A DNA stretch of 62,876 nucleotides, counting the filler, from Sphacelaria rigidula (Eukaryota), in the NCBI GenBank assembly GCA_964200075.2. It is 7 parts of 7 records of this genome, joined end to end, with 100 filler letters (N's around TTAATTAATTAA, not from the genome) between each part and the next. Parts side by side here need not be neighbours in the genome. Positions count along the whole stretch, not along the records: positions 17,997 to 26,893 come from CAXNAA020009806.1; 6 more parts are not named here. One strand, given 5' to 3'. A program made the translations under genes and the position numbers. This document shows positions 1 to 62,876 of the stretch, in pieces. Under the pieces are notes generated by a model that saw nothing but the letters and a program-made list of their open reading frames with translations, was not told the origin of the DNA and did no database searches. How positions within the stretch are numbered: position 1 is the stretch's first letter; each line of letters begins with the position of its first letter.

Positions 1-73
1 ATGCGAGGTCAATGGTCTGATGACTATGGCATGCATGATCATGAGTACCCCCTCCCCCCCTCTCCCCCACCCC
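1..73 (+). mobile_element. 3' end of a variant non-LTR retroelement subfamily followed by a C-rich tail
   Basis: gaggtcaatggtctgatgactatggcatgcatgatcatgagtac-cccc resembles the LINE 3' end (gtggtcaatggtcaaacgacta...gagtac-gccc). A second copy lies on the minus strand at ~62574-62626. Confidence 0.65.
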
Positions 74-2636
74 TATCGGAGGATGACTCTAGGGCGATTG
101 AAAAGGGAATGATGAAAAAAAACCCGTTCGGGACGGCATGTTTTTTTTTCGAGAGTTAACGGCGATAATCAGTACCAGGACATTAGGAAAATGCCGTTGA
201 CTCACGAAATAAACTGACCGTCCGGATTTTTTTCTATCTTTCATTGTGCCCTATTCATTCATCTTCGTACCAAATTTGAAAGTTCAACCCTCAAAATCGA
301 GGTGAGGTGGGGCAATTCAGAAACCGGACCGGGCGAAATCTGGAACAACTTTTTTCAGGCCATTTACTGGCCCAGGTTTGACACTAGCGATTTTCTGTAC
401 AAAGTTTCGAAGCACAACTCTCAAAACTGAGATGCGATATCCAGATTAAGTGCATGTAGTGCCTCCGCTTGTAATATGTTGATTTTAGTATTAAACTAAT
501 GTGCACAGTATCTCGAGATAGATAGCGACTTAGGCGAAGCTGAGGGTATCGATCGTTTTCCCGTGCTCCGGAAAATGTCCACACCAAAAATCCTCATCAT
601 CCGCGGTGAATATCGCTCGGGGTTCCATGTAGATTGTTGTAGTAGAGCTATAGACGCTATCTCCATACGGTATAGGCATTGGAGCTCTATGTGACGTGGA
701 GTTTCATCAGCGAGAAAAAAATGGCCCAGACTTTTGAGCAGATGGGCACATTTCTCTTGATCAGACGATTAATACGATATGCAGATCACGGCCCAACTCG
801 TCTGTGCCGAGGAGATTTTGCTTAGAGCTCAAGTCTGCATCTAGATCAGTAGGCTACCTTCCTGCTGCCCAACAACTGCTGGTCGTGCTCATGGAGCGCA
901 GAAGATAAAAAACATGAGCACCCTACCGGTACGTCAACGTGCTTGGCCGTAATTACAACCATGAGGGAGGAATCGGGAAGATGCAGAGCTTTCCGGTCAC
1001 CAGCACGCAACTTGTGTACGGGTAGTGTAAGCGTTGTTAGGGTACTGTTGGATTTTTGGGTTGGGCTGTGAGAGGGAAGCTGCAACTAGACAAAGATTGC
1101 CAGAGCAATTGGTTTCAGCGGGTGGACTTACCAGTCCACATCTCAGACGGATGCCCATCTCGGATATCCCACACCTAGGTTGGCAGCCCACAGGTGATAT
1201 GATGTCAACGTCCCAGACGGAGCTCCCAGATGAGGGTCCCACTTGTTCATGTATCCATATCCTAAACCGATGTCCCAAATGTAAAAACATTCGACCCAGG
1301 TGGATGTCACGAACGAAAAACCGTATCCGGGATGGACGTGAGGTTCCAGATGAACGTCTCAAACGGACATCCATATCCCAGATAGAATCAGCACGAAAAC
1401 ACAGAGCCCACCCTCTGCAGCCAGGGTCCAAGGCCACGTCGAGCAGCAGTATAGGAAAAGATCTTGCACCTAGCGAGTATCCGAGTATCTTTCTCGAAGA
1501 GATGTTGACACAAAAAGCGCTGTACTGTGCCGTACGTACGCAACGCAGCACCTGAAAAAGGGAACAGGCTACCCCTCAAACTTGCAGTGTATGACCGCCG
1601 CACAGTGTTGGGACCAAGAAAGCTTCGACGTCTCTTTCCTGAAGAGGGGGATGAAAGACACGTGCAACGTTCAAGCGATGCTGTCGTTCGCGAGACTGTC
1701 ACGGGTCGCCACGGGACTGTCACCTAAACTACAGTATTCCATCGTGCGGCGGGACTTTATGATGACCATGAAAGCAATACAGTAGCTCGACAACTCAAGA
1801 ATCGCTGGACCCGGTCCTACCGTATTCCATGTATCTAGAGTTTGGTCGTATTTTTGGGGGGTAGGGGGTGAGGGGGGGGGGCGGGGGTACGAACACATCC
1901 GCTAGTTAGTCCATGCGAGATATCAAGCGGTCGCTTGTGCACCCGTTACGCGATCATCCGCGTACGTCTCGATCGTACACAAGGCCGTTGGACAACTACT
2001 ACTGCTGTAGCCGTCAACAAATTACGCAGGGGACGCGTCATCCGTCACCACATACATCATATGTTTCTTTGTTGTGGTAGATGGTTTTATACAGCATTTA
2101 CTTTCAACTACTACTGGATACCAGTTTCATTTGTCTACGCACGACCCCCCGCCATGTTAGTGTGTTTGACGGGTAAAAAACTGCATGCCACGACATTGTA
2201 TCCATATTATGTTGTACGCCACTTGGATCGTCATGCACACAGTGAAAGAAGGAACTTGGTCGGGTAAAAAATGTTGAAACGGCGGTGAAGTGCGGCGTGA
2301 AGCTTGGTCGCTCCGTCCGATCGTTAGAATGAGGCACCCACATGTTCGCAAGGCAATTTTGATGTCATTCAGCACACAGATACACACCTCCCGCCAGGTG
2401 CCCGCCACGCTCGTGCTTATGACTGTGACACTAGTGCGCTCCAGCTGAAATACGTTATCGCCTTGTAGCAGTCGGGACTGCGGCGCGGGCGCTTCCATCA
2501 TCAGCCATTCCTGGGAAGGGCGTGGTGAGCAATATATCTTTGACATATCTCTGAAGCATCGATTGGTATCGACAACACAAAACGCGTCGCAAAATGACTG
2601 TCCTATACAGTTCCCACAGTCCAAAACTTGAGGATG

Positions 2637-3555: not shown

Positions 3556-4449
3556 GGAGAGAGATATCGCGGCATTGTTCCTGAAGCCGTAGCCACAGCG
3601 CTCTGAGAGTAAATTCTGCATCCCTCATTTCCAGACGCGATTGTTTTGAGAATGTTTCACACTTCAACTTTGCTGATGACACTTCTACGGGTACATGTGA
3701 GGTCATGAGGGAACGTGAAGTTCAGTCAACAAGAAAGTGTTTGGGATCTTTATTTCATCGGCAGAACATCAAGTGGTTCATTGTTGTACATGTACTGTAG
3801 TGAAGTGCATCGCGGTCAAATGACAATCGCTTTGACTGCCAGCAGTATGCGGTCATGTCTATAGGCCTTAAATCCATTTTCAAGTGAATTTGATTCTTCC
3901 TTCTTCAGCACATGGTTCACCCTGGCGGTCAAAGGCTTTATTTAGTCCTATCGGTGGTCTAGGCCAGTATTGGTATCCATAACTGCAAGCGGACATGAAT
4001 GACACCGTCTGGCTCGTGGCTGACTCTACTGTGTGTGACGGTGTCCCCCCTCTTCCTCCCCTCCTTTTGTCGTCAGTTTTTCACCCCCCTCTTCTTCGAG
4101 ACGAGTCTGTAGTCTCAAGAGATCAGCCCCTCTCTTTCCCACGTACCCTGCAATTCTCTATCGAGGGTTGTCTTAGCAATCCCGCAGCCAGTCGACTTTA
4201 TGCGTCGTTTGTTTTCACCCTTCGGAAGACGATATCCAGTGAGATAGATAGCTACCGATGGTGTGCCAGTTTGACCGACTGGGCGCGACGACATTCATTG
4301 CGTAGACTGCATCCCTGAGAAATGTGCATCGCCGCAATTTCCTATAGTTTATGAGATAAACAACTAAAGCATGCTATACGCGGGTCGTGTTTCGAAAGTA
4401 ATCTGCGCTGCAAGATTTTGTATGGTATGGACAGCAGAAGCAGACCCGC

Positions 4450-7935: not shown

Positions 7936-8898
7936 CGTGATGCTTCCTCTTCGCGAAAATTCCTGGTACAACAACAGCCTGCAATACTGATGCGTAAGGC
8001 AGGTCGTCGTCGTTAGCAAAAGTCACAGCCACGATTAGAGCGCGAACAGCGAAACCGACAGACAATATCACGTCACTGTTGGCAATGTCTAAAGATGGGT
8101 GTGCGATTGTAATCACCATTGGCGTCATCAACAACAACCGCTGAGAGCAGTAGCTTTTGACAACGGCGAATCCCGTCACCTCATCATCTCGTTCATCACA
8201 CGTCATGCGAGCAAAGGGCTTGCAGCGGTTGCGACGGTGTCGCGACTCCATGCTCTGAGATTCCGGCGCTTGCTGCCCCCCCCTTCCCGCCGCCGAGAGT
8301 TGGCGTTGGTTCGAAACGACGCTGTAACGCACACCACTCACGTCAGCTTGGCGACGAGGCGACCGTTTTTTAGTGTCGCTCACGTTTTGTTTTCACTTGC
8401 GTTTTATTTTGCGGTAACCATTATGGTGGTCGCGTTAGATCAAATTGTGAGGGATCACGTTGTGAGGGATGGAGAACCTCAACTCTGCGCAAGGCGGATA
8501 GTCTTACTACGTGGTGTTTAAATGGTGAGACACTCACTAGGCGGTGTGCAACCTGTGGTTACCTCTGGAGATCAATCTTACTTGGATTCAGCTCACCCTT
8601 CATGCGACTCGCCGAACACACCACGGCGCTTCGCGATCGCGAGCATGGTCCAGCGAAAACCTGTCGTGCTCCGTCCTGGCTTTGTGGGGATGCAAGGTCA
8701 ATAGTATCATGATTATTGAATGCAAGGTCATGAGAATATCCCCCCCCCCTGGTGAGACACCCATGAGGCAGTGTATGAGCCGTTGCTGTCTCTGGAAGTG
8801 GCGATACCAGATATTAAAGAAACTCAGAGTAGGCTGTCATCCAAATGCAAGATGATCAGTAGGCTCCGGGCCGAACAATCTTTGCAGGGTGCAGCTCA

Positions 8899-8998: not shown

Positions 8999-9799
8999 GC
9001 TCTACAGAACCTGCGCACTGGAGACTGAAAAACGCTAGATAGGAAGATCAAAAAAAGACAAGAAGAACAAAAAAGGACAACCTGACGGTAACGAGGAGGG
9101 GAAGCTGTATGTTCATTTTTTCGTGACATTTTTGGGCCGGTTTCGGGGGGGGGCTATCGTCGACAGTGTCATACTTGTCTTGCGTTCTTTCGCAGTAAAT
9201 GGATCGATTCCCTTCACTGCAGCCACTGATACCTTCTCTCTTCGAGCTACATGGACGCATGCAAAGTGAAAATAGACCAGTATCCGGGCGCATCGGATTG
9301 CTTTATAAAACCGTCTGACCCTTGTGATGTCCAACCCCAAGGATGAAAGGAGCGGCCTCCAGGGACTGAAGCAAGGGTGGATATTCCATTTTTCCGTCGC
9401 TTTGCCAAGATCCATTTTCAAAACACCATCAAGGATCCCAACAGCTACATTGAGCAATATGCCGATCGACGGAGACATGGCTCGCAAACCTTGATAGGGC
9501 AACGTCTTGGAGCCTTGGCCAGCCGCGTTTCGTTCGCGTCAACTCGTATGATTTTCGATGAAAGCGTTCCGTGGCAAATCATGAAATGCGTACATCATGC
9601 GCTCTGTGGACCCTCCCTGAGGCATGATTCGTATTCTGAGGGTGTGTTTGCCGATCTACTGGACCTTTTGACAGTAGCACAAAATGGTGAGCGGTAGATG
9701 ATGACTGATGCTGCCTATGCGCCATGAATGTATGCATTCTATATTTCGGAGGATCACAATCGTGGTGGCAATATCCTCATGAAATCTATGGTGTCATCT

Positions 9800-11530
9800 C
9801 TCGGTGCATTGCATGCAGAACCGAGTCTACAGGTATCCGGACGTGTGGGTTTGCCTCTACGACTTCTACGGGTGCGATTCACAGCCGTTTGAGGAGAAGT
9901 GCATACGATCCATACACGCCACAGAGGGAGGGAAAACACGGGCACGATATCACCCCAACGGAGCAAACCATCAGGAGTTGAAGATTGCTCCGGTTCTCAC
10001 GGACAAGGTGACGGCGAGCGCCTGGCAGTTCACGTTTGACCATCGCACACACCTCTGCCGTGTTGCACACAGCAACTTGTTTTGGTATTACAATACCGTG
10101 CTGGGTGCGTGTATATTGCACCATGAGATATTGAATGCTATACACGCCACAAAACTTACACTCGAGTAAGCTGTTTTCAAGGTTTCCCGTACGCTAGCTT
10201 TGTTGGCAAAACTTGTGCAATGGTGGCTGAGATGTCATATACTCCGGTTGCAAGGTGATATTGGTCGTCGGGCACCGTCTGCACTCTCTGCGGGATGTGT
10301 TGAAGAGGCAAATGAACGGGAAACCTTTCGCGGGTCGAGATAATCTGTCGTCGGGATAACGCATCAGCCCCGTATATCGAGGTGGTGTCGTTGACCACGT
10401 ATGACAAAAAAGCGGTTTTTCGGCTGTAGCGCTATGAATGTTCAGAAAATAGAGACCCTGAAGACATGTACTTGTTTGTTGAAAGGATCCGGGTCCACTC
10501 GGTCGAGCGAAAATATCAAGGAACAAGAAGAGGGGACTGTACACTCCTTGTGATTCTCTGTACATCTCCAATATTCGTCACGATCTGGTACTAAAGGTGA
10601 AATCGTCGCTCGCACGGGACCCCTTCAAGATACCAATTGTTTCGGTAACACCGAAGACATTTTTTTCCACATCCTTTGTTCCTGAAAAATATGCCTGCAT
10701 GCCCCCCCCCCCCCCCCCCCCCTCCTCCTCCATATCGATAACGATTCACATGCTACCACATCATGGGTGTGCGTGCGAATAGCGAGGGTGGTGTGCAGTC
10801 GTCGAAGCATCAGCCGTGGAGGTCGAGCTTGGCAAAGAGCGGGAACCCGATAATTACTTGGACTACATATTGCTGGACGTGAGTTGTGCATGGCGAGCAA
10901 AAGCGTTGCATGTAGCAATGTTCTAATGAGTCAAGAGTATGCGATGGCTAAACCTATTCCTGCAAATTCATTCAGAGAGTACGAGGCTGAAGGGGACGAT
11001 GTCGATTGCCATCATACCATTGGCAATATCGTCGAAGGCTCCATTCTCAGCATTGGCATGCGTACGACCGGAAGCGGGCCTTGACTTCCCACACCATACG
11101 TTGCCGCTGTACTTGATCACATCAACCCGGTGGGAATTTGACACATTCGACAAATAGCTTAGTGGCGCGCGGAGGTCATTTCCGACGCCTTTCCTTGCAA
11201 CGGATTCGCGGTTGTGCAGCCATTATTTTCAAGTACTTTGTATGGAGACCGCCTGGGGATTTCCATCACAGTAGTGATTGCCAAAACAGTATTTCGGACG
11301 TCGGCCGAACGCCACCTACAGTATCATGGCTAGTACGCATGGTGTTTTAAACATGGCGGATAAAACAAGCCGTAGGCGCTTACCGTGGTAAACGCACCCG
11401 GTGGATGATGTCACTACACGCTAGAAATGCAAGAACGCATGATTCAGGTTGAATTTGTCTCCCTGTGTTTGGACAGATGTATTGGTACCCGGGTGGATAT
11501 CCGGGGAACTCTACAACATGTGGCATGGAG
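9800..11530 (+). pseudogene. Possible decayed CxC + KDZ transposase
   Basis: Fragments in KDZ order: VWVCLYDFYG...NLFWYY...ILHHEIL (CxC-like), RCM*QC...VCDG, ARGGHF...AAIIF...SDCQ, SLHARN...RLNLSP...GWISGELYNMW. The last resembles FHxxxH..C...SP...G..DGE..E..W. Frameshifted throughout. Confidence 0.3.
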
Positions 11531-16852: not shown

Positions 16853-18056
16853 CTGTTTTGGTGGGGTCACAGCTTGCAAGACTTCACGGTACTACACTGT
16901 CACTAGCAACCTAACCTGGGGTGCACGCCTGATTGTATGAAGGTACAGCAGCACCAGTGTGTGATTTTTGATTTGTTGTCTGACATTATAGAAGTGGCGG
17001 CACAACACGCGGCGTGATGCTTCGGTTTGACAAAAATGGTTCATCGTGCAAGGGGCAAGTCGCAAAAGATGTAGTTGATCACAACTCGAGGTGTGATGCA
17101 CGATGAATAGTGTGTTCTTCAAGTTGGTGATATACCAAAGTATATTCCGCGGTCACTATTCCGTCATGTTTCTATCGAATTGGAGCATTTACCTTGGCTC
17201 TGTGCACTGCGAACTGCGAACGCACTCCTTATTCAATAATCGCGCCAAATGTCGAAACTGGGCGAAAAATTATGAATGCAAATGCGCGCTCGCTTTTTTC
17301 TTTCTTCACACCAAACAAGGGATTCGGCAGCAGGACCATTTTTTTTATTGTCGGCTACACAACAAAGTATACTCTCCAGACACCTAAACGCCAAAGCAAT
17401 AGAATTCCAAAGCTTGTAGAGGAAACTGGACATGATGAGAGCTGATTTCCTGTCGACCGAACGTCTCCATTTCCCGTACTTGAACATGTAGGCTTGAAGG
17501 GATGGGTTGTGCAGGAAGTCTAGAGGATCCGCTACGTTCGCGGGTAGCTCTGCTTGCCCGCTCTCTCCACTCTTGGTAAAGGGCACTGGGGCGGTCACGG
17601 GTGCAGCAGCCGCCGCCGTAGCAGACACAGATACAGACGGTTCGGCAGAAACGTCGGCCGTACAGTAGCAGACACAGATACAGACGGTTCGACAGAAACG
17701 TCGACCGCAGATTCTGCGCCGCCGCCCTTTACAAAGCCGAAAGTCTGAAGGCGGCTCATGTTGCAGACCGGTGTTGTTCGCAGCAAGTGGCTGTGGTGTG
17801 TGTGGTGTGTGGAGTGTGGTGGGTGGTGGGGTGATGAGCGGTGGAACGATGTGCTGTCTACCATCCCCCATCCCCCCCCCCCCCCAGACGGGAGAGNNNN
17901 NNNNNNNNNNNNNNNNNNNNNNNNNNNNNNNNNNNNNNNNTTAATTAATTAANNNNNNNNNNNNNNNNNNNNNNNNNNNNNNNNNNNNNNNNNNNNTGGC
18001 ATCGCCACTTCCAGAGACAGCCACGGCTTTTACACTGCCTCATGGGTGCATACCAG

Positions 18057-18914
18057 TGTAAGGAAGGGGTGGGGGGTAGGGGAGGGGGATAGAGTGAGGG
18101 CCAGCGACAACATCCTAATATTGCGGTTAGTTGAAGGTCACGATCGGTACATGTTACCTACAAAGCCATCTGTACTCGTAATTCGACCACGTGGGTCATA
18201 TCACTCTCGCATGAGTACTGATGAGGCATGTCTTTCGATAACACCTACCTTTGTAGCTAGTACAACGGTATTTTTCTTACCAGCTCTACTTTCGGTATAA
18301 TGGTGACCAATTTGCCGCGTGTCAGGTGCTATACCCAATGCCCATTACCGTCCCCGTATAATGCAGACCCGGTTTTGTAGTACCCCGTATTTCACATTCC
18401 ATTACTCACGTTCGTGAACTCCTTTGCTATTTGCTCCCCCGTAACGACATCACTCCCCGTCCTCTCTTGGACCGACGTTATGATCCCAACGTACATGCAA
18501 AGCTTGTCGTACGTGTTGAGGGGGGACAGAGTCTCGGTGACATCGTTTAAAGCTGTTCGAAGGCAGGCAGGCAGCAGCAACGCCTGCTTATTCACTGTTG
18601 TGGTATGCAGGCTGCAGGCGGCGGTGCAGTGGATTGTGTAAGGCAGGGGTGGGGGTGGGGGGGATAGAGCGAGGGACGGCGAGAACATCCTAATATCGCG
18701 GTTAGTTGAAGGTCACGATCGGTACACGTTATCTACAAAGCCACCTGTACTCGTAATTCGACCACGAATTTGGGTCATATCAGTCTCGCATGAGTACTAA
18801 TAAGCCATGTTCTTCGATAATATCTAACTTTGTAGCTAGTACAACGGTGTCTTTCTTGCGAGCTCCACTTTCGGTAGAATGGTGACCAACTTGCCGCGTG
18901 TCAGGTGCCATACC
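18057..18914 (+). repeat. Two ~280-bp direct repeats separated by ~300 bp (TRIM/LTR-like or local duplication)
   Basis: 18057-18335 and 18637-18914 both begin tgtaagg, share catcctaatat.gcggttagttgaaggtcacgatcggtaca and end gccgcgtgtcaggtgc.atacc. Confidence 0.85.
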
Positions 18915-21900: not shown

Positions 21901-22329
21901 GGTTACAAAAGAGCCCCCTACGCCAATAACGTGTACAAAGCAAAAGCGATTTCGTGCATTTGACCCAAAACAAAATTCCGGAGAGGTTGTGTTTTTTTAC
22001 TGGATTTTGTCCCGAAAAGTGGTTTATACGACTAAAAGTTTGTGTGTTGTACGTGTTTGTAATAACCTGTTCGTTACGAATTTTCAAGTGCCCATACGCA
22101 CTTTTTTTGTTGACATAAAGGTAAAATATAAAACCCGCGCACCGAGAATCGCTTCGCTCAAGGGTGCCAGAGGGCTCTCAGACAATAAATGAAGGCATGC
22201 CGACGTGAAATGGTCCGTTGACCTTCTTCCGTACAGCTTAGGTGAACAGAAGAGAGAGAATGCTTCGTTCTTGACTATATGTTGGTAGAGTACGGAAATA
22301 GTAAGGGAATGGGCGTACATGTACGCACA

Positions 22330-25222
22330 GAGGACGTGGGAGCTACATATTATTGCCTAGTGTGGACAGGAAGGCAACAAACGAGAGCTTTGGGACATAG
22401 GCGGGATAGGAAGTTGAACAAATGGAAAAGCGATAAACTGGAACTACAAGAGGAAACCAGCAAGAGTTTCAAGAACATATGACCGAAAATGCATTCAAAT
22501 TTTCCGAGGTATTGCAAAGCGTAGGTACAGTCATTACCAAAGTAGAAAGGGATCGGGCAGGAGCGAAGCTTATAAAAAAACGGGAGCAGTTGGTCAAGAC
22601 CACATCAAGTAAAGTCCTGGGGAAGAAACTGATATCTCTATGCAACAGAGCAGTAAAATGGTGGGATGAGGAAGTAGACGAGACTGTAAGAGTAAGGAGA
22701 GACGCCCAAGCCAGATATATATCGAGTAAAACTACAGTAGAATGAGAGGAGTACGCTGAAGCTAGAGAAAAGGTAAAAAAGATGATAGAGAGGAAAGAGA
22801 AGGGAGTATGGAAAAGTGTAGTTAACAAAACAACTGAACTTTGATGGCAGGATGAAGCAAATGTTGGTAGGAATAAAAGGGATAATGGGGAAACAGGTAT
22901 GAGAGACAGACAAGGGGCTAGCCACTCCAAGAGCACAGAGAAAAAATAGTTAGTAGTTCGAAGGGGAAGAGAAGTGCACTAGCAGAGCACTATAGAAAAA
23001 GAGGGACACCAACAAATGACGAGAGGTTCGACGCGAAACTGGAGAAAGAAATCAACGCGTGGGCAGATGCAAATGTGGAGGCATCAAAGCGGGGATACAG
23101 TGGCTCAAGTTACCTATCAGATAATGTTCACAAGAGAGGAAGTAAAGGAGTGTATAGCTGAACTCAAGAACAGAAATGCAGCAGGGGCAGACGATATAGA
23201 GGACGAATTTCTAAAGTTGCGGGAGAGGAAATGATTACCATGACTGTTAGGAAGTATAACTGGATCTGGGGAAACGAGTACCCACCCAAGAGGTGGAGCG
23301 AAGGAGTAGTAGCAGTAGACTTTTTTCAAGAAAGGAGAGACGGCTGACACAGGGAATTATAGAGAGGTAACGCTTCTGAGCACCGTGGGGAGAATAGTCT
23401 GTAAGGTTCTGAACGATAGAGTGGGAATGGTGCTAGAGAAGGAAGAAAAAAACAACAAAGGGCAAGCAGGTTTGAGAGCGAAGCGTAGCTGCGTAGACCA
23501 CGTGTACACACTAGGTAAGATTATTCAGGGTAGGAAAGACACCGGGCTGACAACGTACTGTTTCTCTCTAGACGTGCAGAAGGTCTATGACACAATATGG
23601 AAAAAGGACGTGTGGAAGAAAAAATGGAAAACTGGCATTAGAGGGAAAGTACGGAGACTAGTGAAGACGGCAGAATGTGCGAAAAGTGCTCTAAAGATGA
23701 TGCTAGACGGGGAAATATCGATGTTTTGATACTTTACGACGAGTTGCACAACGGTGTACGTTATCACCCACTTTTTCCAGGGTATTCATAATGGTCTGAG
23801 AAGAACAATAGAAGTAGCTAAACAAGGAGTCAAGGTGGGGCAAGATACGGCATCGGGATTGATGTTCACAGATGATGTCGTGGGGATATCAGAAAGACTA
23901 GGGGCATTGCAGCAGCAAAAAAAAGGGCCTAGAATACACAAGGAAATGGAGAGTAGCAGTAAATAAATACGCGGTACCACTATGTACAGAGAACAAGAAA
24001 AATCCGGTAGAGTTCAAATGGAAGTGGGGAGAACAGGAGTTGCTGGTCGTAGACTAGTCTACATACCTTGGCGTGGAGATATCGAAAATATGTTCCTAGG
24101 ACGCACACAGAAATATAGTAGTAGAAAAAGTTAACGTACAGATGGGTAAGATGGACGTGATCCTAAGAGATTCGCATCTAGATTATAGGATTAAGAGATG
24201 TATCCTGATGAACGTGATCGTACCAAAGCTGGAATATGCAGGAGAAGTAGGGGAGGGGAACGTGAAGTTGGTGTAGGAATTCAAAACAGTACAGGTGGCA
24301 GCAGCTAAGAAAGTACTCAGACGCTCAAAAACGACGAGTAATACAGCATAAAGAACATAATTGGGAAATGTACGCACTTGAAACAAATAGGGGAATGAGA
24401 AAATTGGAATAACAACATACCGTAAAGAACATGCGAACGACGAAATTGCGAGCAATAGTTGATGGGGTTGTACAGAAGATATGACGAAAGGGCAGGCTGG
24501 GATAACGTGGGAGAGCGCAGTTGAGAAAGTATGGGAGGACATGAGAGGAAATCAGGACGAGATAAAGTCCATAGGTGAACGTGAGGGGTGTAAAACCAAA
24601 GTAAGAGACAGCATACGAGTTGAGGGAAAATAAGCGCCAAGACGGGAGTAGACGAGGAAGAGCACATGAAGATATACCCCGGGTTGGGAAAGGGGATAGG
24701 AAAGAAAAAATATATCTGCACGGCTCAATGGACTCCGCGAAAAAATTGAAAGTGCGGTTTCGGGTGGGGGACCTGGACCTTCCAGTAAGAACAAGGTATA
24801 CACCAGTAGTCGGATGGAGGAGGGACTTGATGCACAGAATTGCGCCCGTGGCAAAGCAATAGAGAGTCAAAGTCATTTAGTGACAGAATGTGAACTATAC
24901 AAAGAGGAACGGGATGTATTAAGGGGGAATGTGGGAAGGACATGAAGGTGGCATGAACTCGTTTGATGCATTAGAGAGTAGCGAAAAAAGGATGGATATA
25001 CTATCCGTAGGAGATAGATGGTGGGCAGAGACGACGAAACAGGAACGGGATATGAAGGTAAAAGGTTTTTGTGTAATGTATGGAAGAAACGTAATGAGCG
25101 CCCAAATGTTGAGGATGTCTCTATTAGGAGTGGGTAAGGTGCTCCGTCTCGAAAGGGATGCGTGGCCAATGGTCAAACGACTAAGGTAAGCAACAAATGA
25201 GTACGCCCGCCTCCCCCCCCCC
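22330..25222 (+). mobile_element. Decayed RTE-like non-LTR retrotransposon (RT plus C-terminal Zn-knuckle remnant) with poly(C) 3' tail
   Basis: RT motifs KNRNAAGADDI..EFLK, QAGLRAKRSCVDHVYTL, LDVQKVYDTIW, GLMFTDD, YLGVEI and VIVPKLEYAGEV; C-terminal C..G..ES..H...EC. Many stops and frameshifts. The 3' module at 25139-25205 is followed by a C-run. Confidence 0.93.
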
Positions 25223-35300: not shown

Positions 35301-36869
35301 GGCCGATCCTCGGAAGCTAACTCGCAATAACACTGCACGGACCCGGCGGCAACGTGATACGGTATCTTCTCGCATTTATTCAAAAATACACAATGTATAT
35401 GTTGAACCAGTCTGGTAAGGGCCATTGTTTCCGACACTGCTTGCTTGGTGGTCTCCGAAATTTTCGTGATTGGCAAGGGACCTGATGACTCTCGAACGCT
35501 TTCGAGTGCCACGGCGTACACACAGGGCAACTCTTCGAATTGCTGCGTTGCGGTCTGAATTTTTCGAATTTTGATGCCGCGGTAGCTCCCCCCCCCCCAA
35601 AGCGGCTGGGTTGAGGAGGCAAAATCTACATATATACCAAAATGGAAAACACTAGGCATACCGAGCAGCGGGGAACTCCCACGCTTGTGATAGTTTTCGC
35701 TAATGTCGTCCATATGAGGCGCCCCATGCAGTCTGACCAGCTGTCACGCTCGGTATAGTCATTTTCTTCGTGACAGTTTTGGGACTGGTTTGAGGGGGGG
35801 GGGGGGGGGGGGGGGGGGTGCGGGGCCATCACCCTTGGCTGGAAAAGGAAAGTTGGGAGTGAACATCAAGATGCTTTGTTTGAGGAGAAGNNNNNNNNNN
35901 NNNNNNNNNNNNNNNNNNNNNNNNNNNNNNNNNNTTAATTAATTAANNNNNNNNNNNNNNNNNNNNNNNNNNNNNNNNNNNNNNNNNNNNGGCAGTATTG
36001 ATTGGCGTTATTGATCCACAACTTGCTTGTTCGTACTCCCGTTGCTGCTTTCAACGACGATCTGACTCGGAATTTCGAGCAACAAATGGCCCAAAACACC
36101 CCCCCCCCTATCGTAGGATGACTCAGGTGACGTATCTAGCCCCTTCTGTAGTACTGATGAATCTGTTTTCTTGATGCCAAGGACTTCTCTGATGTACCCT
36201 TCCCTCTCTCGTGATGATGAAACTTTGATGCCGGAACTGTCCTGGTGTGGTGACTTCGGCTGTTGCTGTTACTGCTGTTGCTGCTGGTGCTGCTGATGAT
36301 GATAATAACCGCGACGAGGAGGATGTTCACGATTCTTCTGCCGTGAATTTGCCGATTTTTTGTTGTAGAAAGTGGGATAACGGAAATTCCTGTATCCCTG
36401 TCGTAATGTCCAAGCTTGCTACAACAGTTGACGCGTTTGTTCTTCTCGTAAAACTTCAGCTTCCGACCACTAGCTGTACTTTTGTGTGAGGTTGAAGACT
36501 TGTTTCATGAATATCCACATTGACTGTTGCGCTTGCGGTCTTATTTATTTTCCGAGCTGCACCGCACGCTATTTTGACTTTTTTGCAGAAAGCTGTCGGC
36601 GACAGTTCCACTGTCTTTACTGCTCCTGATGGCTCGACGTCCGCGGGAACTGCTGCTGGTGATAATGCTGTGCCCATCCCCATATTGCTTCTCGGGACAC
36701 TACCGTAGTCGTCAGTGCTGACCCGGTGCATAAGTTGAAGGTTCTTGAGTCCCGAACGATCTTCATGTCAATGAAGTGGAGCATTCCGCTGTTGTCGGTA
36801 TGAATGGGGATCTTGAATTTTCCGGGATGTAAATGAAAGTTGACGGGAAACATGGTTGAAACAACCTTT

Positions 36870-38453: not shown

Positions 38454-39233
38454 GCGTTGGCTACAGCACTCGAAATCATCATGCTGATCAGTGCGGTGGA
38501 GACCACACCACTTTACAGGCCTGTTTCCATTATTTGACGATCGTCTGGAGTGACAGTCGCGCATACGATAGCCTGATTTGCCGCATGACTAACATTTTCG
38601 CGAAATTTCGATGATTGATTCAAACAGTTCGGCATTGATGCCACCAACATTGATGAGTCATGGTCATGCGGTCTACTAGCCGTGAATTTGCGTGCCATGC
38701 GGTTGGCATACATGTTGCGCATTGTAGTTTCATCTCCTCGATGCTGAAGTTTGGGTCGCGTTCAGCGTTGTACTTGATCTGATCATGATTGCTGGTTAGA
38801 CTTTCAATTACCATGTCAATCTCTCCTCTGAGATATTGTCGCCTATGTCGACAAGCTCGTCTCGTAATTGATATACGTTCGCGAGAAAGATATCCGGGTC
38901 CTTCCCTGGAGACATGGTGATACTGTCCAGTTGTCTCATGAGAATGCGGCGTCTCTGTTTGGAGGAATTTCTGGTATTCAGCTACCAGACCTTCCCACGC
39001 ATGTTCGTCGTTTGGTTTCTCTGAACACTTCGGCTGAAAACGCAAAATATAACTTGCCGCTGAACCAGCTGTCGAAATATACAGAACGATGAACAATTGT
39101 TCGTTACACCGGTCCCAGTTTTTTATGTCACGCTTGGGGGTTACTACCTCTCTTCATTCTCGAAACTCCTCTTATACGCAAGCCAATAACTAGACCATCT
39201 TTCATCGCCATCGTCTACCCCTGTCCGAGATAC

Positions 39234-39318
39234 GTCTCGCAAGGGATGCGCGGCCAATGGTCAAACGACTAAGGCAGGCAGCAAATAAGTACGCCCCCCC
39301 CCCCCCCCCCCCCCTCCC
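39234..39318 (+). mobile_element. Short 3'-end copy of the poly(C) LINE
   Basis: 3' module plus a C21 run; degenerate TSD cccctgtccgagatac / cccgctgtcctacatac. Confidence 0.88.
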
Positions 39319-40205
39319 GCTGTCCTACATACTTCCCTAGTCCTTATTAGTGATTCGATCAGCAGGACCCGCAGCCGTCCGCACCGTCGCCCCCCCACCT
39401 TCTATCCCGTGTTGCCTTCCCTTGAGACAGTCCAACTCCGATCTACCATGTATAGGACACCCCGTGAACTCTCACACAGTGGACCGTAGAAACTACTGCC
39501 GGTACATCCATGGCGGTGCTCAGGGTGAGAGTGCACCCGCTATCCGCGGGTCTCTCTTTTTTGCAATTGGGATGACGTGACTACACATCAAGACGGGATC
39601 TGGAAAACAACAAGCCCACCCCAAACCGTCGATTCCGCCGTGAAAATAGTCGACACTGACACAAAGTTTTGAATACGGAAACAATCGACCCGAATGAGTA
39701 GAACCAACCTGCGGAACCAAACGTTATGCATGATGAAACCATGTTTCTGATCGTGGGCATCGTACTCACCACGCAGTACATATAGTACAGCCCAAACCAC
39801 CACACAATTTGACATAACGGAGCATGGGGGTCGTTAACGTCTTCCCATCAATGACTTATGACACCAACCAGGCACCATGCTGACAAGCACCAAACACCGA
39901 CGCTCAGCAATAACCTAGGCGTGTACTTGAGTATTACGTCGGATGGAGTATTCGGTACGAGAAACCAGGTGACTGGCAACGAACGGCGGAAAGCACACAA
40001 AGCATCGGAAGGATACAAAGCGAAGAGCAAAATTGTAGATTAACGATCATGTTGGAGAGAAAATACGACCATATACCCGACGTCATTTAAGTAAAGTAAT
40101 GATGACCACGACAACACCGCGATGAACAGCACAAGAATTGTACAAACTGACATAGCGACACGATACTATGTGCCATTGCCCGTATTTATCCATAGACTCA
40201 GTCAC

Positions 40206-41746: not shown

Positions 41747-42454
41747 TCAGTTTGTATTCCGTGCACTGGGCCGAGCGTCCTCGAACGAGGCTACTCCCCT
41801 AATCTTGCAGGGCCATACACTCCGCTGCCGCTGACCCTCAGCAGTAGGCCACTGGTCACCTACCCCAGACTCCTGACGCACGATGTAAGATCTTTGCCTC
41901 GGTGTGTTCCTCATACTAGGCTTCCTTCCGGGCTTAAAGAGCTGAATTCTCCGCAGTGTCCCATTTCGGTTGACGTGACCCCCTGGCCGATAAAACAGAA
42001 GCCCGAACATCAAGGGTACGACGAGCCAGAACCCGCTGATTTCTCCCAACGTGCCCACGATGTCCAACGGATCGATATCAGAGAGCCGTAAGTAGCTCTG
42101 TGAGCGGATATCCAACTGGATCGAAGCCAAGGTGTCCGTTCCAAACTTGTTCGTTTGGGTTATGGCACATTCAGCGTTATTCCATGTCGATGCTGTCGTG
42201 TCGGCTACAGAATATGTGTGAGTCATCCCCTTCGTTAGGTTCACATGCTGACTGTATGTTACGAAACCCCGAACATACCAAGCTACCGTGGGGTTGAAGC
42301 TTATCGGCACGTAGAGGGAGATGGGTGTTTCGCGCACGGAATCTTCGTCCGCGTCTCCTTCTGCGAGGTACAATTTCACGCTCTCGAAGGCGCCTGTGTT
42401 CGCCGTGGGATCGTATGAGCTGTTCCAAGACACCAGCATATGGAAGTTCCACAA
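41747..42454 (-). CDS. Terminal exon of a membrane protein with a DEG/ENaC TM2-like segment
   Basis: Pyrimidine-rich acceptor ...ctgcag|TTG, then ~235 open codons: a beta-rich segment, DIDPLDIVGTLGEISGFWLVVPLMFGLLFY, and a basic tail. Family assignment is inference. Confidence 0.7.
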   Translation of the reverse strand: MWNFHMLVSWNSSYDPTANTGAFESVKLYLAEGDADEDSVRETPISLYVPISFNPTVAWYVRGFVTYSQHVNLTKGMTHTYSVADTTASTWNNAECAITQTNKFGTDTLASIQLDIRSQSYLRLSDIDPLDIVGTLGEISGFWLVVPLMFGLLFYRPGGHVNRNGTLRRIQLFKPGRKPSMRNTPRQRSYIVRQESGVGDQWPTAEGQRQRSVWPCKIRGVASFEDARPSARNTN

Positions 42455-43327
42455 CTGCAGTGTACAGCCGCAAATACACACGAGAGAGAGAGCAAGTGAG
42501 GGGTCGACCAACGATGGTGTACGTAAATAATTGTTGTTGCACTGCACATTCAACCTACGTGGTTTCACGGAAAGGGTGACCTCGGTGACGGTGGGAGACG
42601 TTACGAGAGCTTTTGGCAGAAACCACAGTGCTTTGAGCAGGGTGTGAGCTCTATGATTTTCCGAGCACAGCATGGCATGTGAGGTCAGCCCGGTGGCTTG
42701 GTGGTTGTTCATCTGGCCCCCACCGTTTTTGCGTCAAGCCACTACATGATAGCGTCACGTTTCTCAGCCTCTCGTGCTTCCGGCGAGCGTCCAAGTGCCG
42801 GTGAATGCTACGTTAGGGTGAGGCCCGAGAGGGGCTCCTGACAGCACCTCAGCTGTGAGAGGAACTCGCTGATTTGTTAATTCTAGTGTGAGGCGTCAGC
42901 CTCGCAAGATTGTTTGCGAAATCCGCACAGAGATTCACTTTTCCGGGTAGGATACATTCATTTTCAGGGTAAGGTACGTTGGGGGGGGGGAAGGAGGCGG
43001 ATAGTTGAAACCATGACAGGGAGGAAACGACAACAAGGCAGTGTTCCAACCCTTTGTGTTTCTCAAGCACTGCTTAAAAGAAGGTTTGGATCCAACATAA
43101 TCGTTCGATTCTCATGAGACCATGGACGCCTCCTAACATCGATCAGCCCCCTTGTTGATACGCGCGTGTGCCTAGCCACGACAATCACCCGGCTGTGATA
43201 TGTGAGGCCTACAGGCATCTTCGTTGCGGTGTGATATTTTCTGCTACAAGCATGATGTGGTGCGCGCACGTTGAGAGTGATATCACTACCAATGTACATC
43301 CCGAATGAGTAAGAGAAGGAAACTTGC

Positions 43328-45038: not shown

Positions 45039-46727
45039 CAATAGAAGCAGCAAAGTAAGGGATCAAGGTGGATGAAGATATATATGGTATCAGGATTGAT
45101 GTTTGCGGATGTTTTTGTGAAGATTTCAGAAACACCAGAAGGATTACAGACACAAATAGACAAGGCGCTAGAATGAACTAGGAAATTGAGAGTGACAGCG
45201 AATGTGAACAAATGCGCGGTACTCATCTGTAACGAAGATCAGAAACATCTGGTAAAGTTCAAATGGAAGTGGGGAGAAGAGGAACTGCCGATTGTAGACC
45301 AGTATACATACCTTGGTGTAGAGATTTAAAAAAACTGTTCTTGGGATGCACACATAAACAAAGTAATATACAAGGTTAAGGCACAGATAGGTAGAACGGA
45401 CGTGATCCTCAGAGACCCGCACCTAGACACTAGGATCAAGAGATGTATCCTGACAAACGTGATCGTACCAAAGCTGAAATATGCAGGCGAAGTATGGGAG
45501 GGGAACGTGGAATTAGTGAAGAACTTAAACACAGTACAGATGGCAGCAGCTAAGAAGATACTTGGATGCTCGAAAACGACGAGAGATACAGTTTTGAGAG
45601 CAGAGTTGGGAATGTACTTACTTAGAACAAACAGAGACTGAGGAAATTACGATGGAGTGATGCTACGGTAGGGTTGCACTTTTTGAGCGAAAATGTTTCT
45701 CGGGGTGTTACACGGGTCATTTTGAGAATCGGCATCATTTTCACTTGCAAAAGACTGAAAATGATGCCGATTTACGAAAAGGCCCCTGTATACATCTCCG
45801 TGTCCTGTCCCCGGATATTTGGGTTACGCAGTAAGCTCCATATGTTTGGGCTCCTACAAAAACGAGACCCAGGACCAAAAAGTGCAACCCCTATCGTAGC
45901 ACTGCTCGATGGTAATATAGCGTGCAAATCATGCAGAGAGAGGAATTGCCAGCTATCGTTGATAGGGCTGTATGGAAGAAACGCACAAAAGGGAAGGCTG
46001 GAATCAGGTGGGATAGATAAGTCGAGAAATTATGGAAGGAGATAGGCGGAAACCTGACGAAATACTGTCCATAGATGAAGACGCGGGGTACAAGGTAAAA
46101 GTATGAGCTATGATAGAAATAAAGGAAAAAAAAGCACTCAGACGCAAGGTAGACGAGGAAGAACATCTGGAGATATACGGGTGGTTGAGAGAGGGGATCG
46201 GAATGAAAGCATATTTGCATGGCCCAATGCACGCCGCGAAAAATATGAAATTACGATTTCGGGTGGGGGACCTGGACCTTCCAGAAAGAATAACGAGATA
46301 AACCAGTAGTCGAAAGGAGGAAAAAGTAGATGAATAGAACTGCCTCTATGGTAAGGGAATAGAGAGCAGAAGTCATATAGTGGCAGAATGTGAACTATAC
46401 AAGGAGGAGCGGGACGTGCTAAAGGGGGAAATGCGAGACGTGAACGAAGGTGACATGAAATCGTTTGATGCATCAGACAGTAGGAAGAAAACAATGGCTA
46501 TACAAGGAGATGGATGGTGGCCAGAGGCGGCGAAATAAGACGGGGATATGATATGTAAAATGTTTCTGTGTAATTTATGGAAAAAAATGTAATGAGCGCC
46601 GGAATGTAGGAGGTGTCTCTATGAGGAGTAGGAACGGTGCTCCGTCTCGAAAGGGATACGTGGTCAATGGTCAAACAACTCAGGCGAACAACAAATGAGT
46701 ACGCCCCCCCCCCCTCCCCTCCCCTCC
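45039..46727 (+). mobile_element. Second decayed copy of the RTE-like LINE (3' half) with poly(C) tail
   Basis: GLMFAD, YTYLGVEI, RCILTNVIVPKLKYAGEVW and KLRFRVGDLDLP; collinear with 23810-25222. The C-rich tail is at 46704-46727. Confidence 0.93.
45655..45907. mobile_element. Sola2-like MITE (GAG...CTC, 4-bp TSD) inserted in the LINE
   Basis: ~30-bp TIR gagtgatgctacggtagggttgcactttttg / caaaaagtgcaacccctatcgtagcactgctc; GATG on both sides. Another copy's end is at 44987-45038. Confidence 0.88.
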
Positions 46728-50623: not shown

Positions 50624-53600
50624 ATGGCAGAACAAGAGGGTAGGCCTGCTACAGTAGTCGGTGAGCAGGGTGGTTTTGAGCAATTGGGGGAGGTGAATAG
50701 CCAGCTGAGTTTGATGGCTGAGCTACTGCGTGACTTGTACTGAAACCAAGCTGCATTACAGAGTGACATTAACAATATGAAGGTAGTAAGAGAGTCCGGG
50801 GTGGGGTGGGGGGGCGTACTCATTTGTTGCTTGCCTTAGTCGTTTGACCATTGACCACGCATCCCTTTCGAGACGGAGAGACGGAGAGAGTCCGGGGGCG
50901 CAGAAATCAATGGCGTCCCCGATAGTGATGGTTTCGATAGTCAACAGGGGGAATCCAGCATAAGCAGGACAGTGGAGCGACATGGTGCCGGAAATCGAAA
51001 AGACCGACGGTCCATCGGGAGTCAAGCTGTTCCGGAGGAAGGAGCGCGCGATGCAGGGGGCAACGAGACCTGAATTCATACGAGGAACATCAACCCCTGA
51101 GCAAAAAAAATATCCTCTTGAAATACCTCAACGCATTGCCGTTCGACTATCACGTTCAGAAGCAGTTGCTGGAGGATCGAGAGGGCCACTGACACGGGAG
51201 GTTGTGCTAGTCTCGGCCCGAAAGCGCTTTGAATCGACCGCTTTGAAGCAGGAACTTACCCGGGGAAAGAAGTCATCCCCGGGCGACCAGGCTCTCCCTG
51301 CCAGGGGTGGGACCGGAGAACCGAGCGGTGCACACCGCGAGGAAAACCGGGAAAACCCCCGGGCTCTGGTCAGAAAAATTGCGGGAGCCAGAGTTCTAGT
51401 AGCTCTAGGTCGGCATCGTCGGACGGCAAACCGGCGATTGTGAAGCTGCTCCGCTGCCACGTTTGCGACGAGGAGGCGACGCACCGAGCCCGGGACTGCC
51501 CGAAGAGATACTGCGGGAGGTGAGGTCAACAGGATCACACGTCCTGGAACTGTCCGAGATCGACAGCGAAGAAAGAAGATGTGGCGATGGCGATGGGCGC
51601 GACCGACGACAGCGACAGCTCCTCCGTTTACTCGGTGGCGGACGGGGAGGCTTTCACCTTTTTCGACACCACCATCAACGGCGAAACAGGCGAGTATGCA
51701 TTGAGTGTTGGGCAGGGGGGTGATAGACAATAGGGTGAGGGCGAACCGTGGGTATTTGACACGGGGGCTACCCAGCACTTATCCCACGATTCCCATGGGA
51801 TGGCGGTGTACATAGAGTGCCAGGGTATGGTACTACGGTGCGCGGGTGGTAGTACTTACCCGATCGTAGGCAGAGGAAATTTGTCTCTTGCCTTCAGATC
51901 TGACGGACAGGATGTGATGATCAAATTAATGGATGCTGACCATGTACCTGATGTCCGTCATCACCGCTTGTCAATCATGAAGATCCTAAACATGTGACAC
52001 ACCTACACTGGTTTTCGTGCAGGTTTCAGGGTAGATCTCATTTCAGGAAATACACTGAAAATACCCGGACAACCACGTCAACTCGAAATGTACGCCCGCC
52101 GCCTCGACCAAAGTGGTAGTGACAAGTGTGTTTCGGCATAGTATGCTGTTATTGACCCGGCGGCTCCGCCTACCCCCAGATCGCTGACATCAACGAGTTC
52201 TACTGTGCTCACGCCCGCGTCCACGAGGACTTACTGCGAAAGACCGCGAAGCAGCAGGAAAAGCAGCTGGCTGGGCAGCTACAGCCCTGCCGCGGCTGCT
52301 CAGTGACGAAGGGACTGCGACGGCCGATTCCAAGATCGACGTACACGAGAGCAGCTGAGTCAGCGTCTAGGGTGTTTGTAGATCTTTCCGGTCCGAATTC
52401 AGTCAAGTCTCACGGGGGAGAGTCGTACACGACGATAGTCCGAGATGATCACTCACGGCACACGAGGCCGTATTTCCTCCGGAAGAAGGATGAGGCAGAG
52501 AGATACTTCGCGGAATACACTGCATGGGTTTCTCCAAGAAAAAATGAGATAGTTCGTAGCGATGACGGGGGTGAATTTTCGCAGGGTGCGTTTGGTGAAC
52601 TGTGCGACAGGGAAACTATCAAGCAGGGAAAGACGACTGCCGACTCACCCCAGTTCAACGGTGTTGCAGAGCGAGTGTGGGAATCATCGAAAGAGCAGGC
52701 CTTGCGGCCAGGATCCAAGCATCTGAGTTTTACCCAGATGAGCTCATCCCAAATGGTGACAGCCTGTGGGCTGAACAGGCAAACTAGGCGTGTCAAGCCC
52801 TGAACTGTACCGCTACCTCGGCAAACCCAAACTGCATATCACCGTATGAGATGTGGTACGGATCACCACCGGACGGTGATCTCATTCCGTTCTTGAAGCT
52901 TAGGTTTTCTAGGAGAAAGCAGACAAACAAATTACAGCCGAAGGCGGAAAAAAGCTGATATTTGAGCCCAGCCCCAGGCTACTCACGTGACGCGATGCAA
53001 GTTTTGACTGCACGAGGATCTATTACCGTAACAAGACATGTAACATGGGCAAGTATGTCCGCCGCCCCCTCCCGCACACTACAGCAAGCGGTCCAGACGC
53101 CGGGCGAGCCGAAGGATTCCAACGTCGATCAAGGCCAGGAATTGAGCGAGGAAAGGATGGAAAACTCGACAGTGGACACTTCGTCCAGCGGTTCCTCAAG
53201 CGCACCGTTCTCCCCGCCGAGTTCCGTTGGTGGGAGGGGCGGAGCAGCACCGCAGTAGTGGAGGGGACGAAGTGCCTTCACCGTCCTCACGAGGAGGGGG
53301 CAGGCGGGGTGATAGCAGAGATCCCCGTTCCAGGTTTCATCAACGGAGGGGGTGAGGGGGAGCTGGAATCATCACCATCATCACCATCATCACCATCATC
53401 ACCATCATCACCATCATCAACGCCAACATCAGCACCGATGCCGACACCAGCGCCAACGCCGACACCTACGCCGGTGCTCACATCGGCATCGTACACTCCC
53501 TCGTCGCCCGCACTGTCACCCTCTTCTACGGGTCCCTCGTAAGATAGCCGGGGGGTTGGCGACGCTCCTCAAGTCCCGAGGACCGAGAAACGCCATCTCA

Positions 53601-58918: not shown

Positions 58919-59258
58919 GACACTTTCTACGATAGCCCCCCCCCCCCGCCCCCCAATCCAGTGCTCCGTCTCGAAAGGGATGCGTGGTCAATGGTCAAAC
59001 GACTAAGGCAAGCAACAAACGAGGACGCCTCCCAAACCAGCCCAAAAGTGCCACGAAAAAAAACGGATATACAACGCCTGATGTTTCGGTTCAGGCTGCA
59101 CGAAGCGCCTCGTATGGGCGACAATTACGAGAATGAATTCAAGCGTGGAAATTCAAAGTTCCTCGTTGTGCTCGGCTATTTCCATTTCGATTTACGTGAA
59201 GATTTTGCCTCCCCAAACCAGGCACTTCTCTGGGGGGGGGGATATCGTAGAAAGTGTC
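58919..59258. mobile_element. MITE with TIR gacactttctacgata.ccccc; a LINE 3'-end copy (58961-59033) is inserted in its C-run
   Basis: gacactttctacgatagccccc / gggggatatcgtagaaagtgtc; the nested module is flanked by cccaatccag / cccaaaccag. Confidence 0.88.
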
Positions 59259-61978: not shown

Positions 61979-62127
61979 CTGATACAGCCGATGGGCATTT
62001 TGGAATCTCGAGCTTCGTGCGCAACGGTGAGATCTTTCTCTCTCAGCGTCATCCACGCACCGTCCTTTCTGTTGGTAGCCTTCTTGCTCGCAACCCGACC
62101 GATATGTTCGCCCCGAGGTTCCTCCAC
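61979..62127 (-). CDS. EML-like exon
   Basis: ...RKDGAWMTLREKDLTVAHEARDSKMPIGCI(R)|gtgagc; the phase-2 end matches the next exon. Confidence 0.88.
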
Positions 62128-62629
62128 CTTCGGGAAGAGAAATGCGAAGGCGTCGTGTTACGGCTCGAGAAACGGCTGGGGACGCGGGGATCCTGTGCCA
62201 CGAAATTGGGATCAGTTGATGATAGCGACGCATCTATGCAGAGCAGTAGCTCCCGTTCTGGTTGGTCAACGTGCCGGCGTACTATCAAAATCTCCACAAC
62301 CGTGCACGATGCGGCGTTTAGAAATTGACTCTGGCAGAGCGTGTTGTGTGTATTTTCGCTGAACGTTTCCGATCGACTTCGTGGCGCGGATCGACATGAC
62401 ACTGAGTGAACCGAACAGGAACATTGCGCTCCGACGTGGGGAGAATAGTCCATTTTACAAGTAGCATGCTGACCGGCAGTCAGCCAACGACGGTCGTGGA
62501 TGGATATCTCAGGTCTGGTATGTTTTCCAGTACATTCCCTTTCAAAACGTCTCACTTCCCCCCCCCCCCCCTGTGTACTCATGATCATGCATGCCATAGT
62601 CATACGACCATTGACCTCAAATCCCTATA

Positions 62630-62876
62630 AAGCCGGGACGGAGTACGCCGGGTTTTCGCCGGACCAGGCGGGGGCTATGAAGTAGCACAGTCAACAGGGG
62701 GGCGTACTCATTTGTTGCTTGCCTTAGTCGCTTGACCATTGACCACGTATCCCTTTCGAGACGGAGCACCGCACAGCAACAGGGGGGAGGGGGTGGGTAC
62801 TTATTTGTTGCTTCCCTTAGTGGTCAATCCTTATTAGCCTGGTCCGGCGAGAACCCGGCGTGCTCCGTCCCGGCTT
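62630..62876. mobile_element. MITE with ~40-bp TIR, containing two nested LINE 3'-end copies (62697-62770 and ~62782-62827, minus strand)
   Basis: aagccgggacggagtacgccgggttttcgccggaccaggc and its reverse complement at the window end; nested TSD gcacag(t)caacagggggg. Confidence 0.88.

Follow-up and report, generated by a model that had tools for sequence, protein, structure and literature searches.

C-rich tails, C-run target sites and a coding 3' end in a degenerate RTE-X-like retrotransposon family of the brown alga Sphacelaria rigidula

The RTE-X families of the brown alga Ectocarpus are the closest described systems to the non-long terminal repeat (non-LTR) retrotransposon family treated here, which lies in ~63 kb of Sphacelaria rigidula DNA (the window, meaning the whole stretch analysed, to which all window counts below are confined). 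In the supplementary table of the Ectocarpus study RTEX-1_Ec32 is entered as "single EN-RT ORF; (C)n 3'", that is, one open reading frame (ORF) encoding an endonuclease (EN) together with a reverse transcriptase (RT), with a target-site duplication (TSD) given as "C-rich", and RTEX-2_Ec32 as "(C)n termini/TSD" (PMC12477816). Two non-autonomous families, RTEX-N1 (607 bp) and RTEX-N2 (188 bp), are recorded as having only the 3' 60-100 bp in common, C-rich TSDs and a possible tandem arrangement; RTEX-N1 is the most abundant family in Ectocarpus according to the main text, and the best blastp matches of the Ectocarpus RTEX families are RTEX-4_NV and RTEX-1_BF (PMC12477816). Elements of other groups in that alga are tabulated with different tails, (CAA)n for the RTE families and (CA)n for CRE (PMC12477816). 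The passages and rows of PMC12477816 drawn on here contain no discussion of the C-tail in the main text, and no mechanism, stop-codon position or TSD analysis. A literature search on RTE-X in brown algae yields this paper only, and no other discussion of C-tailed long interspersed nuclear elements (LINEs) was found among the listed matches of a search whose scope left Repbase entries and subscription papers aside; the consulted parts of two RTEX-clade papers (PMC4421812, PMC11203168) describe no LINE tails, and those of the Phaeoexplorer preprint mention none. A preliminary description of the window, made from the sequence alone, knew of no account of such a family and is superseded on that point, since C-rich TSDs were already tabulated for Ectocarpus RTE-X together with the (C)n at the 3' end (PMC12477816).

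The Sphacelaria family is recognised by a 68-nt module, present at 25138-25205 (+) in a long copy, which terminates in AAATGAGTACG and adjoins a C-rich tract at 25206-25222. A nhmmer profile built from six clear copies of the module and run on the window returns these at E-values from 2.4e-24 to 1.1e-19; the shortest copy measures 40 nt and the longest 2.9 kb, and the 3' end is common to all. The copies comprise two long ones (c1, c2), four short ones of A-type (c3-c6, 61-68 nt), one partial and diverged (c7), and a non-coding B-type of ~98 nt (Table 1). A family ending in C-tracts, as first proposed, is thereby confirmed with every copy coordinate correct; its copy list was incomplete, the diverged members at 1-48, 8642-8739 and 62576-62673 (-) having been missed. 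The bare 11-mer is by itself weak evidence, with 5 matches at no more than one mismatch against 1.11 expected and 5 reached in 1/100 shuffles; the full 68-nt module is not weak.

What follows the module is rich in C: at least five of the next six nucleotides are C after 9/10 module ends (six clear copies, c7 and three diverged B-type copies), against a background of 0.73% on both strands, and every clear copy runs into a C-rich tract of 6 to ~25 nt. An A-run or poly(A) of the L1 kind after the module occurs at none of the ten ends. The C-homopolymer 3' end of the preliminary description stands insofar as a C-rich end takes the place of poly(A); two tails, those of c2 (46704-46727) and c3 (50798-50814), are not pure homopolymers, their C-runs being interrupted every 4-5 nt by T or A. 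A majority of copies lacking a 3' C-run, one of the outcomes that had been named as damaging to the proposal, is not what the window shows. The sole miss among the ten ends is the B-type copy ending at 62576 (-), where ACA and G14 are found; a repeat on the far side of the G14 (61900-62560) was looked for and none was found.

The c1 segment at 23319-23729 matches the Pfam family RVT_1 (E 2.6e-10), and the same RT fragment retrieves full-length relatives of 1328-1360 aa, namely P0002, of 1360 aa, from a contig of 4903 nt, and P0004, of 1328 aa, from a contig of 5649 nt; in either protein both domains stand in one ORF. The Pfam domain Exo_endo_phos (E 3.4e-12 in the full-length relatives), an apurinic/apyrimidinic (APE)-type endonuclease, covers residues 170-392 of P0002 and 142-383 of P0004, and RVT_1 covers residues 740-989 of P0002 (E 9.8e-31). 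Both the APE endonuclease and the single EN-RT ORF are thus read from these relatives, and the window copies keep only P0002 residue 381 onward. The closest solved structures are L1 ORF2p (6.6e-21) and R2 (8.8e-20). Against P0002, c1 aligns by tblastn in three pieces in several frames at 44-49% identity and has an in-frame stop near its end; c2, whose 5' end is lost to a ~100-N gap, aligns at 60-77% identity, and its last 46 codons are open. Both long copies are truncated and degenerate. An Ectocarpus protein (P0006) is ~90% identical to P0004, gaps included; the C-terminal 211 residues of P0002 as a protein query matched only 3 proteins, and in the ESM Atlas P0002 meets generic EN/RT clusters without taxa, one cnidarian-rich cluster excepted. 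The RT domain, 5' truncation and TSDs of variable length, together with the lack of terminal repeats (self-comparison of the window finds no flanking long repeats), are those of a non-LTR retrotransposon, and the RTE-group identity first put forward is supported by the Pfam RT match and by the alignment to APE+RT proteins of 1328-1360 aa.

Relatives beyond the window extend the picture. A prokaryote genome collection, scanned once with a degenerate 29-nt pattern, gave two contigs labelled as bacterial metagenome-assembled genomes (MAGs), L001 and L002; both have the same ORF end and stop followed by a C-run, C9-T-C9 in L001 and C13 in L002, and the L002 frame is open over its last 111 codons, its module being 96-98.5% identical to those of c3, c4 and c5. 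These MAG bins probably hold brown-algal contamination. The C-terminus of the relatives reads ...NGAPSRKG.VVNGQMTKASNK, and the window modules translated in that frame give the same peptide followed by TGA, so the module is a coding end and not an untranslated region (UTR); the ORF end ...ASNK* falls at the same point in 5/5 sequences (P0002, P0004, P0025, L001 and L002). The module comprises the final 20 codons of one APE-endonuclease/RT ORF, its stop and GTACG, and since the stop lies inside AAATGAGTACG with only GTACG before the C-run, the 3' UTR is just 5 nt long; the "3' module" of the preliminary description is corrected accordingly.

The (C)n 3' end and the C-rich TSD, which are features of the Ectocarpus RTE-X families and not of the clade at large, are both found in the window (PMC12477816). 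By these hallmarks, by homology and by elimination, the window family is placed with Ectocarpus RTE-X. The C-tail and the C-rich duplications are already on record in the Ectocarpus relatives, and the Sphacelaria family is from a different brown-algal order (PMC12477816).

The duplications bear on whether the C-tract is part of the element or of its target. All four short copies are flanked by TSDs of 13-18 nt, each of which starts with C4-C6. In c3 and c6 the 5' copy of the TSD has C4-C5 as opposed to 17-25 C-rich nt on the 3' side, an excess of 12-21 nt, and in these two the tail is clearly added. The C4-C6 starts and the excess C of c3 and c6 mean that the element has a tail of its own and also prefers C-run targets. 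The choice drawn earlier, between a tail and target preference only, thus resolves into both: a tail reaches beyond the target run in at least two of the four testable insertions, and the preference for C-runs is real. Individual sites illustrate it, c4 being inserted in a pre-existing C-run that is the tail of c7, and c5 in a pre-existing C12-G-C6 run bordering a ~200-nt repeat; uninterrupted paralogues of this host repeat, at 35753-35801 and 9107-9153, serve as empty sites.

A tailless element that integrates directly upstream of pre-existing C-runs would give the same start to 4/4 duplications and would leave, in c4 and c5, a C6 fully covered by the duplication; the window is also rich in other C/G runs, 22 being 8 nt or longer where 200 shuffles average 1.3 and do not exceed 4. 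Target preference only is nevertheless very unlikely, as the C4-C5 of c3 is met by 13 extra C-rich nt and the C4 of c6 by C21 plus more, and the long copies and both outside loci have C10-C13 or longer right after the stop region; in the annotation of the Ectocarpus consensus sequences, moreover, (C)n belongs to the element (PMC12477816). An assembly or sequencing artefact, in which homopolymer errors or chimeric joins yield the C-runs, could appeal to the N-run gaps with a linker near c2 and elsewhere; it has a negligible probability in view of ten separate copies with matching duplications and of the same structure in two unrelated public contigs.

The geometry of the TSDs and the excess of tail suggest a mode of priming. 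In target-primed reverse transcription of the standard geometry, a TSD starting with C4-C6 means that the nicked bottom strand ends in G4-G6, which would be able to pair with a C-tailed RNA. The mechanism inferred is as follows: the element RNA would have a 3' end consisting of a templated C-run, the endonuclease would nick the bottom strand at a G-run's edge (a C-run on the element strand), and the exposed 3'-OH of the G-run would pair with the C-tail and prime reverse transcription, as the C:G counterpart of the T-run/poly(A) annealing of L1. Annealing register and polymerase slippage would set the length of the tail, from zero excess to >20 nt, and would account for the variable tails and the zero-excess cases alike. 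Old tails would turn into targets, as c4 on the tail of c7 and c5 on the C-run of another repeat suggest, because each insertion leaves a new C-run; the ~98-nt non-coding B-type elements, which share module and tail, are probably mobilised in trans.

Untemplated addition by non-LTR RTs such as R2 is established, and counts in favour of a C-run that is added and not templated, whether by an RT that puts untemplated G on the nicked DNA or by a cellular nucleotidyl transferase that puts C on the RNA. Tail lengths from 0 to ~25 nt and the scattered non-C bases in the tails would suit this; however, a G-ending primer at 4/4 duplications is a prediction of annealing to an existing C-tail, and the zero-excess cases fit in-register annealing. 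The present evidence gives no direct discrimination between a templated and an added C-run, and the added one is considered unlikely.

The short copies may be something other than truncation products: both the copies of 61-68 nt and the B-type ones of ~98 nt could be discrete minimal units, whether a 3' RNA fragment that is protected or processed, or a very small non-autonomous element, copied whole by the enzyme. All four short A-type copies start within the first 8 nt of the module, 3/3 B-type copies with a visible 5' end share their start sequence, and the fold predicted for the A-type copies is a three-way junction closed by the module's own two ends; the 3' 60-100 bp that alone unites RTEX-N1 and RTEX-N2 is a parallel (PMC12477816). 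The discrete lengths suggest a defined RNA unit over random truncation. As a full explanation discrete units are nonetheless doubtful: folding energies are no better than those of shuffles (z -0.36 to +1.97), 0/21 pairs change on both sides among 8 sequences, and the paired fraction of the module alignment is reached by 129/500 shuffles (8 sequences, two rows of which include 5' flanking bases). The whole window has no Rfam match at gathering score and no tRNA-like sequence, and the marks of a short interspersed nuclear element (a tRNA, 5S or 7SL head and an RNA polymerase III promoter) were not found; the copies are just four, and strong 5' truncation is normal in the group.

Long C/G runs are in excess throughout the window, those of at least 10 nt numbering 17 against 2 A/T runs. 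Among the 22 runs of at least 8 nt, four (at 8740, 25213, 39294 and 46704) are tails of the RTE-X family and two (1872 (-) and 36099) are candidate tails with diverged upstream sequence; six border the ~200-nt repeat, one (62558) is next to a B-type copy, though on the wrong strand, and nine are unassigned. The family thus contributes to the poly-C/G tracts, and the role of major source that was first suggested for it is only partly borne out in this sample.

The runs bordering the ~200-nt repeat are not tails of the RTE-X family. This repeat is present at 3349-3560, 35588-35818 and 58936-59241 (reverse), with a partial copy at 9104-9153; it lies between a C-run (C10-C12) and a G-run (G9-G25), with short inverted CGATAG / CTATCG motifs outside them, and at 58919-59258 its inverted arms are 27 nt long and 96% identical, runs included. 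Its appearance is that of a small terminal-inverted-repeat element whose ends are homopolymers, or else of one that targets C-runs; it was also considered as a target rather than an element. TATCG, the terminal motif of the repeat's arms, stands directly after three C-runs (64-89, 36109-36124 and 10723-10745), and 64-89 is 92% identical to 36099-36124 over 26 nt. A further kind of element may occupy the C-tails or be aimed at them.

As a whole, the window copies are best explained as dead copies of an APE-type non-LTR retrotransposon of the Ectocarpus RTEX-1/RTEX-2 lineage, C-tailed and G-run-primed, with a probability of roughly 0.7. Several observations weigh against this explanation. The B-type copy with ACA and G14 (62576-62673 (-)) is unaccounted for by the model; in c4 and c5, two of the four short copies, target sequence can account for the whole C6 behind the element, so that no tail is demonstrated there. 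A search for a TSD around c1 gave a best shared word of 8 nt and no duplication, and TSDs were found in 0/2 tested B-type copies. That the short copies start within 8 nt of each other is not predicted by plain random 5' truncation. The C-run is placed in the transcript by inference from DNA, and the clade name RTE-X is taken from the published annotation of the relatives and from elimination (RTE with (CAA)n, CRE with (CA)n) and not from an RT phylogeny (PMC12477816). Every copy in the window is degenerate; in Ectocarpus, thousands are annotated as intact.

A wider reading is tentative and falls a little short of even odds. It would combine a functional C-homopolymer tail, priming that mirrors L1, and a recognition signal within the last 20 codons, placed there since only 5 nt part the end of the ORF from the tail; insertions would plant C-run landing pads for the family itself and for other C-run-seeking elements, the habit would be older than the split of Sphacelariales and Ectocarpales, and the RNA signal would be defined by the 61-68 nt copies as minimal units of retrotransposition. 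If this reading were true, the family would both build and feed on the surplus of poly(C)/poly(G) tracts in the genome.

Table 1. Copies, tails, module matches and target-site duplications of the C-tailed family in the window.
Feature	Position	Strand	Details
Long copy c1	22258..25205	+	5'-truncated, frame-shifted; corresponds to P0002 residues 381-1360 (RT, C-terminal CCHC-like motif, ORF end); tblastn
c1 stop codon TGA of element ORF	25198..25200	+	Within AAATGAGTACG, 5 nt before C tract; translations
c1 C-rich tail	25206..25222	+	17 nt, ending in C10
Long copy c2	45087..46703	+	Corresponds to P0002 residues 910-1360; ~270-nt interruption at 45640-45906; tblastn
c2 C-rich tail	46704..46727	+	C11, then C4 blocks with T between
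Short copy c6	39233..39293	+	61 nt; nhmmer E 1.1e-19
c6 tail C21	39294..39314	+	Longest run of all copies
Short copy c3	50815..50876	-	62 nt; first bases reduplicated (8 nt) at 50877-50884; nhmmer E 1.1e-23
c3 tail and 3' TSD copy	50789..50814	-	Tail 50802-50814 (13 nt), TSD 50789-50801
Short copy c4	62703..62770	-	68 nt; placed directly after c7 C-rich tail
Short copy c5	58961..59027	+	67 nt; at edge of C12-G-C6 run bordering another repeat
Partial diverged copy c7 and tail	62782..62836	-	Copy 40 nt (62797-62836), C-rich tail 15 nt (62782-62796); nhmmer E 4e-3
B-type module, cut by window start	1..85	+	Diverged, non-coding; module 1-48, C-rich tail 37 nt (49-85)
B-type short element and C10	8642..8749	+	Element ~98 nt (8642-8739), C10 at 8740-8749
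B-type short element	62576..62673	-	~98 nt; then ACA and G14, without C-run
B-type 5' head, running off window end	62837..62876	+	85% identity to 8642-8682
Clear module matches	25138-25205 (+), 46636-46703 (+), 50815-50878 (-), 62703-62770 (-), 58961-59027 (+), 39231-39293 (+)		nhmmer
Weaker module matches	62575-62645 (-), 1-47 (+), 62797-62824 (-), 8666-8705 (+)		nhmmer; E 4.5e-7, 1.1e-4, 4e-3 and 0.24, in that order
c3 TSD	50885-50897 (5'), 50789-50801 (3')	-	13/13 identical, starts CCCC; 5' copy C4-C5; 13 extra C-rich nt before 3' copy
c4 TSD	62771-62787, 62685-62702	-	17/18 identical, each starts C6; C6 after element can be all duplication
c5 TSD	58949-58961, 59028-59040	+	11/13 identical, six C-rich nt at start; six C-rich nt after element can be all duplication
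c6 TSD	about 39215-39232, 39314-39331	+	About 14/18 identical; 5' copy C4 only; C21 before 3' copy

The remainder of the window has features of other kinds. Gaps of ~100 N lie at 17897-17996, about 44886-44985 and about 35891-35990, the window containing 528 N in total; a six-frame stop linker, TTAATTAATTAA, is seen in mid-gap at 17897-17996 and near 44886-44985. Just after the gap ending at 17996 are two direct repeats of ~280 nt with 87% identity, 18056-18335 and 18636-18914, 580 nt apart. The longest ORF of the window, 41747-42712 (-), has 321 codons and belongs to no Pfam family; over 74% of its length it matches a Sphacelaria rigidula protein at 100% identity, with a 76% paralogue in the same species and relatives of 47-64% in other brown algae, and is probably an exon of a gene family specific to brown algae. 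An ORF fragment at 52303-52803 (+), in the GC-richer 50-54 kb, has a weak match to the integrase core (rve, E 1.1e-4, below the Pfam cut-off) and is probably the remnant of an LTR retrotransposon or DIRS element.

The tails of LINEs report on the priming of reverse transcription, and a homopolymer that cannot come from polyadenylation, combined with TSDs starting with the same base, lets nature test the primer-annealing model cleanly in an element other than L1. The basic fact of the C-tail is already in a curated library (PMC12477816); what is new is the anatomy, namely a stop codon 5 nt from the tail, duplications that show both an added tail and C-run targeting, and old tails reused as targets, along with a wider host range. 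The family accounts for part of the excess of long C/G runs in the genome, which matter for assembly, for polymerase slippage and for the possible formation of G-quadruplexes or i-motifs. The 68-nt module with its C-run is a precise marker for annotating the family in other brown-algal genomes, and it also flags algal DNA that has been mis-binned into bacterial MAGs, as in L001 and L002.

In comparison with known systems, the family resembles mammalian L1 in having an APE endonuclease and RT, 5' truncation and TSDs of variable length. In both, the TSD starts with the same base as the tail, which is what annealing of the nicked strand to a homopolymer tail would lead one to expect. The differences are that the homopolymer here is C and not A, that there is one ORF, and that the element is essentially without a 3' UTR; since the tail base is C, the tail cannot come from ordinary polyadenylation. 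Microsatellite tails are found in stringent-type LINEs such as eel UnaL2 and the Drosophila I factor, and in Ectocarpus in the (CAA)n-tailed RTE families and the (CA)n-tailed CRE (PMC12477816). The likeness to these LINEs would be a tail other than poly(A) that is copied from a template, probably with slippage, and a conserved 3' region common to non-autonomous partners; in contrast to them, the repeat unit here is a single base and the recognition region would be inside the coding sequence. The nearest full-length relatives share 44-77% protein identity with the window copies. RTEX-N1 and RTEX-N2 are comparable to the short copies as non-autonomous partners with only the 3' end in common and tandem arrangement possible, and the ~98-nt length of the B-type resembles the 3' 100 bp common to both (PMC12477816). 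The likeness is closest to RTEX-1_Ec32 and RTEX-2_Ec32, with which the family shares the single EN-RT ORF, the "(C)n 3'", the C-rich TSDs and an Ectocarpus protein relative, in a host of a different order and as compared by table description and not by alignment of consensus sequences (PMC12477816).

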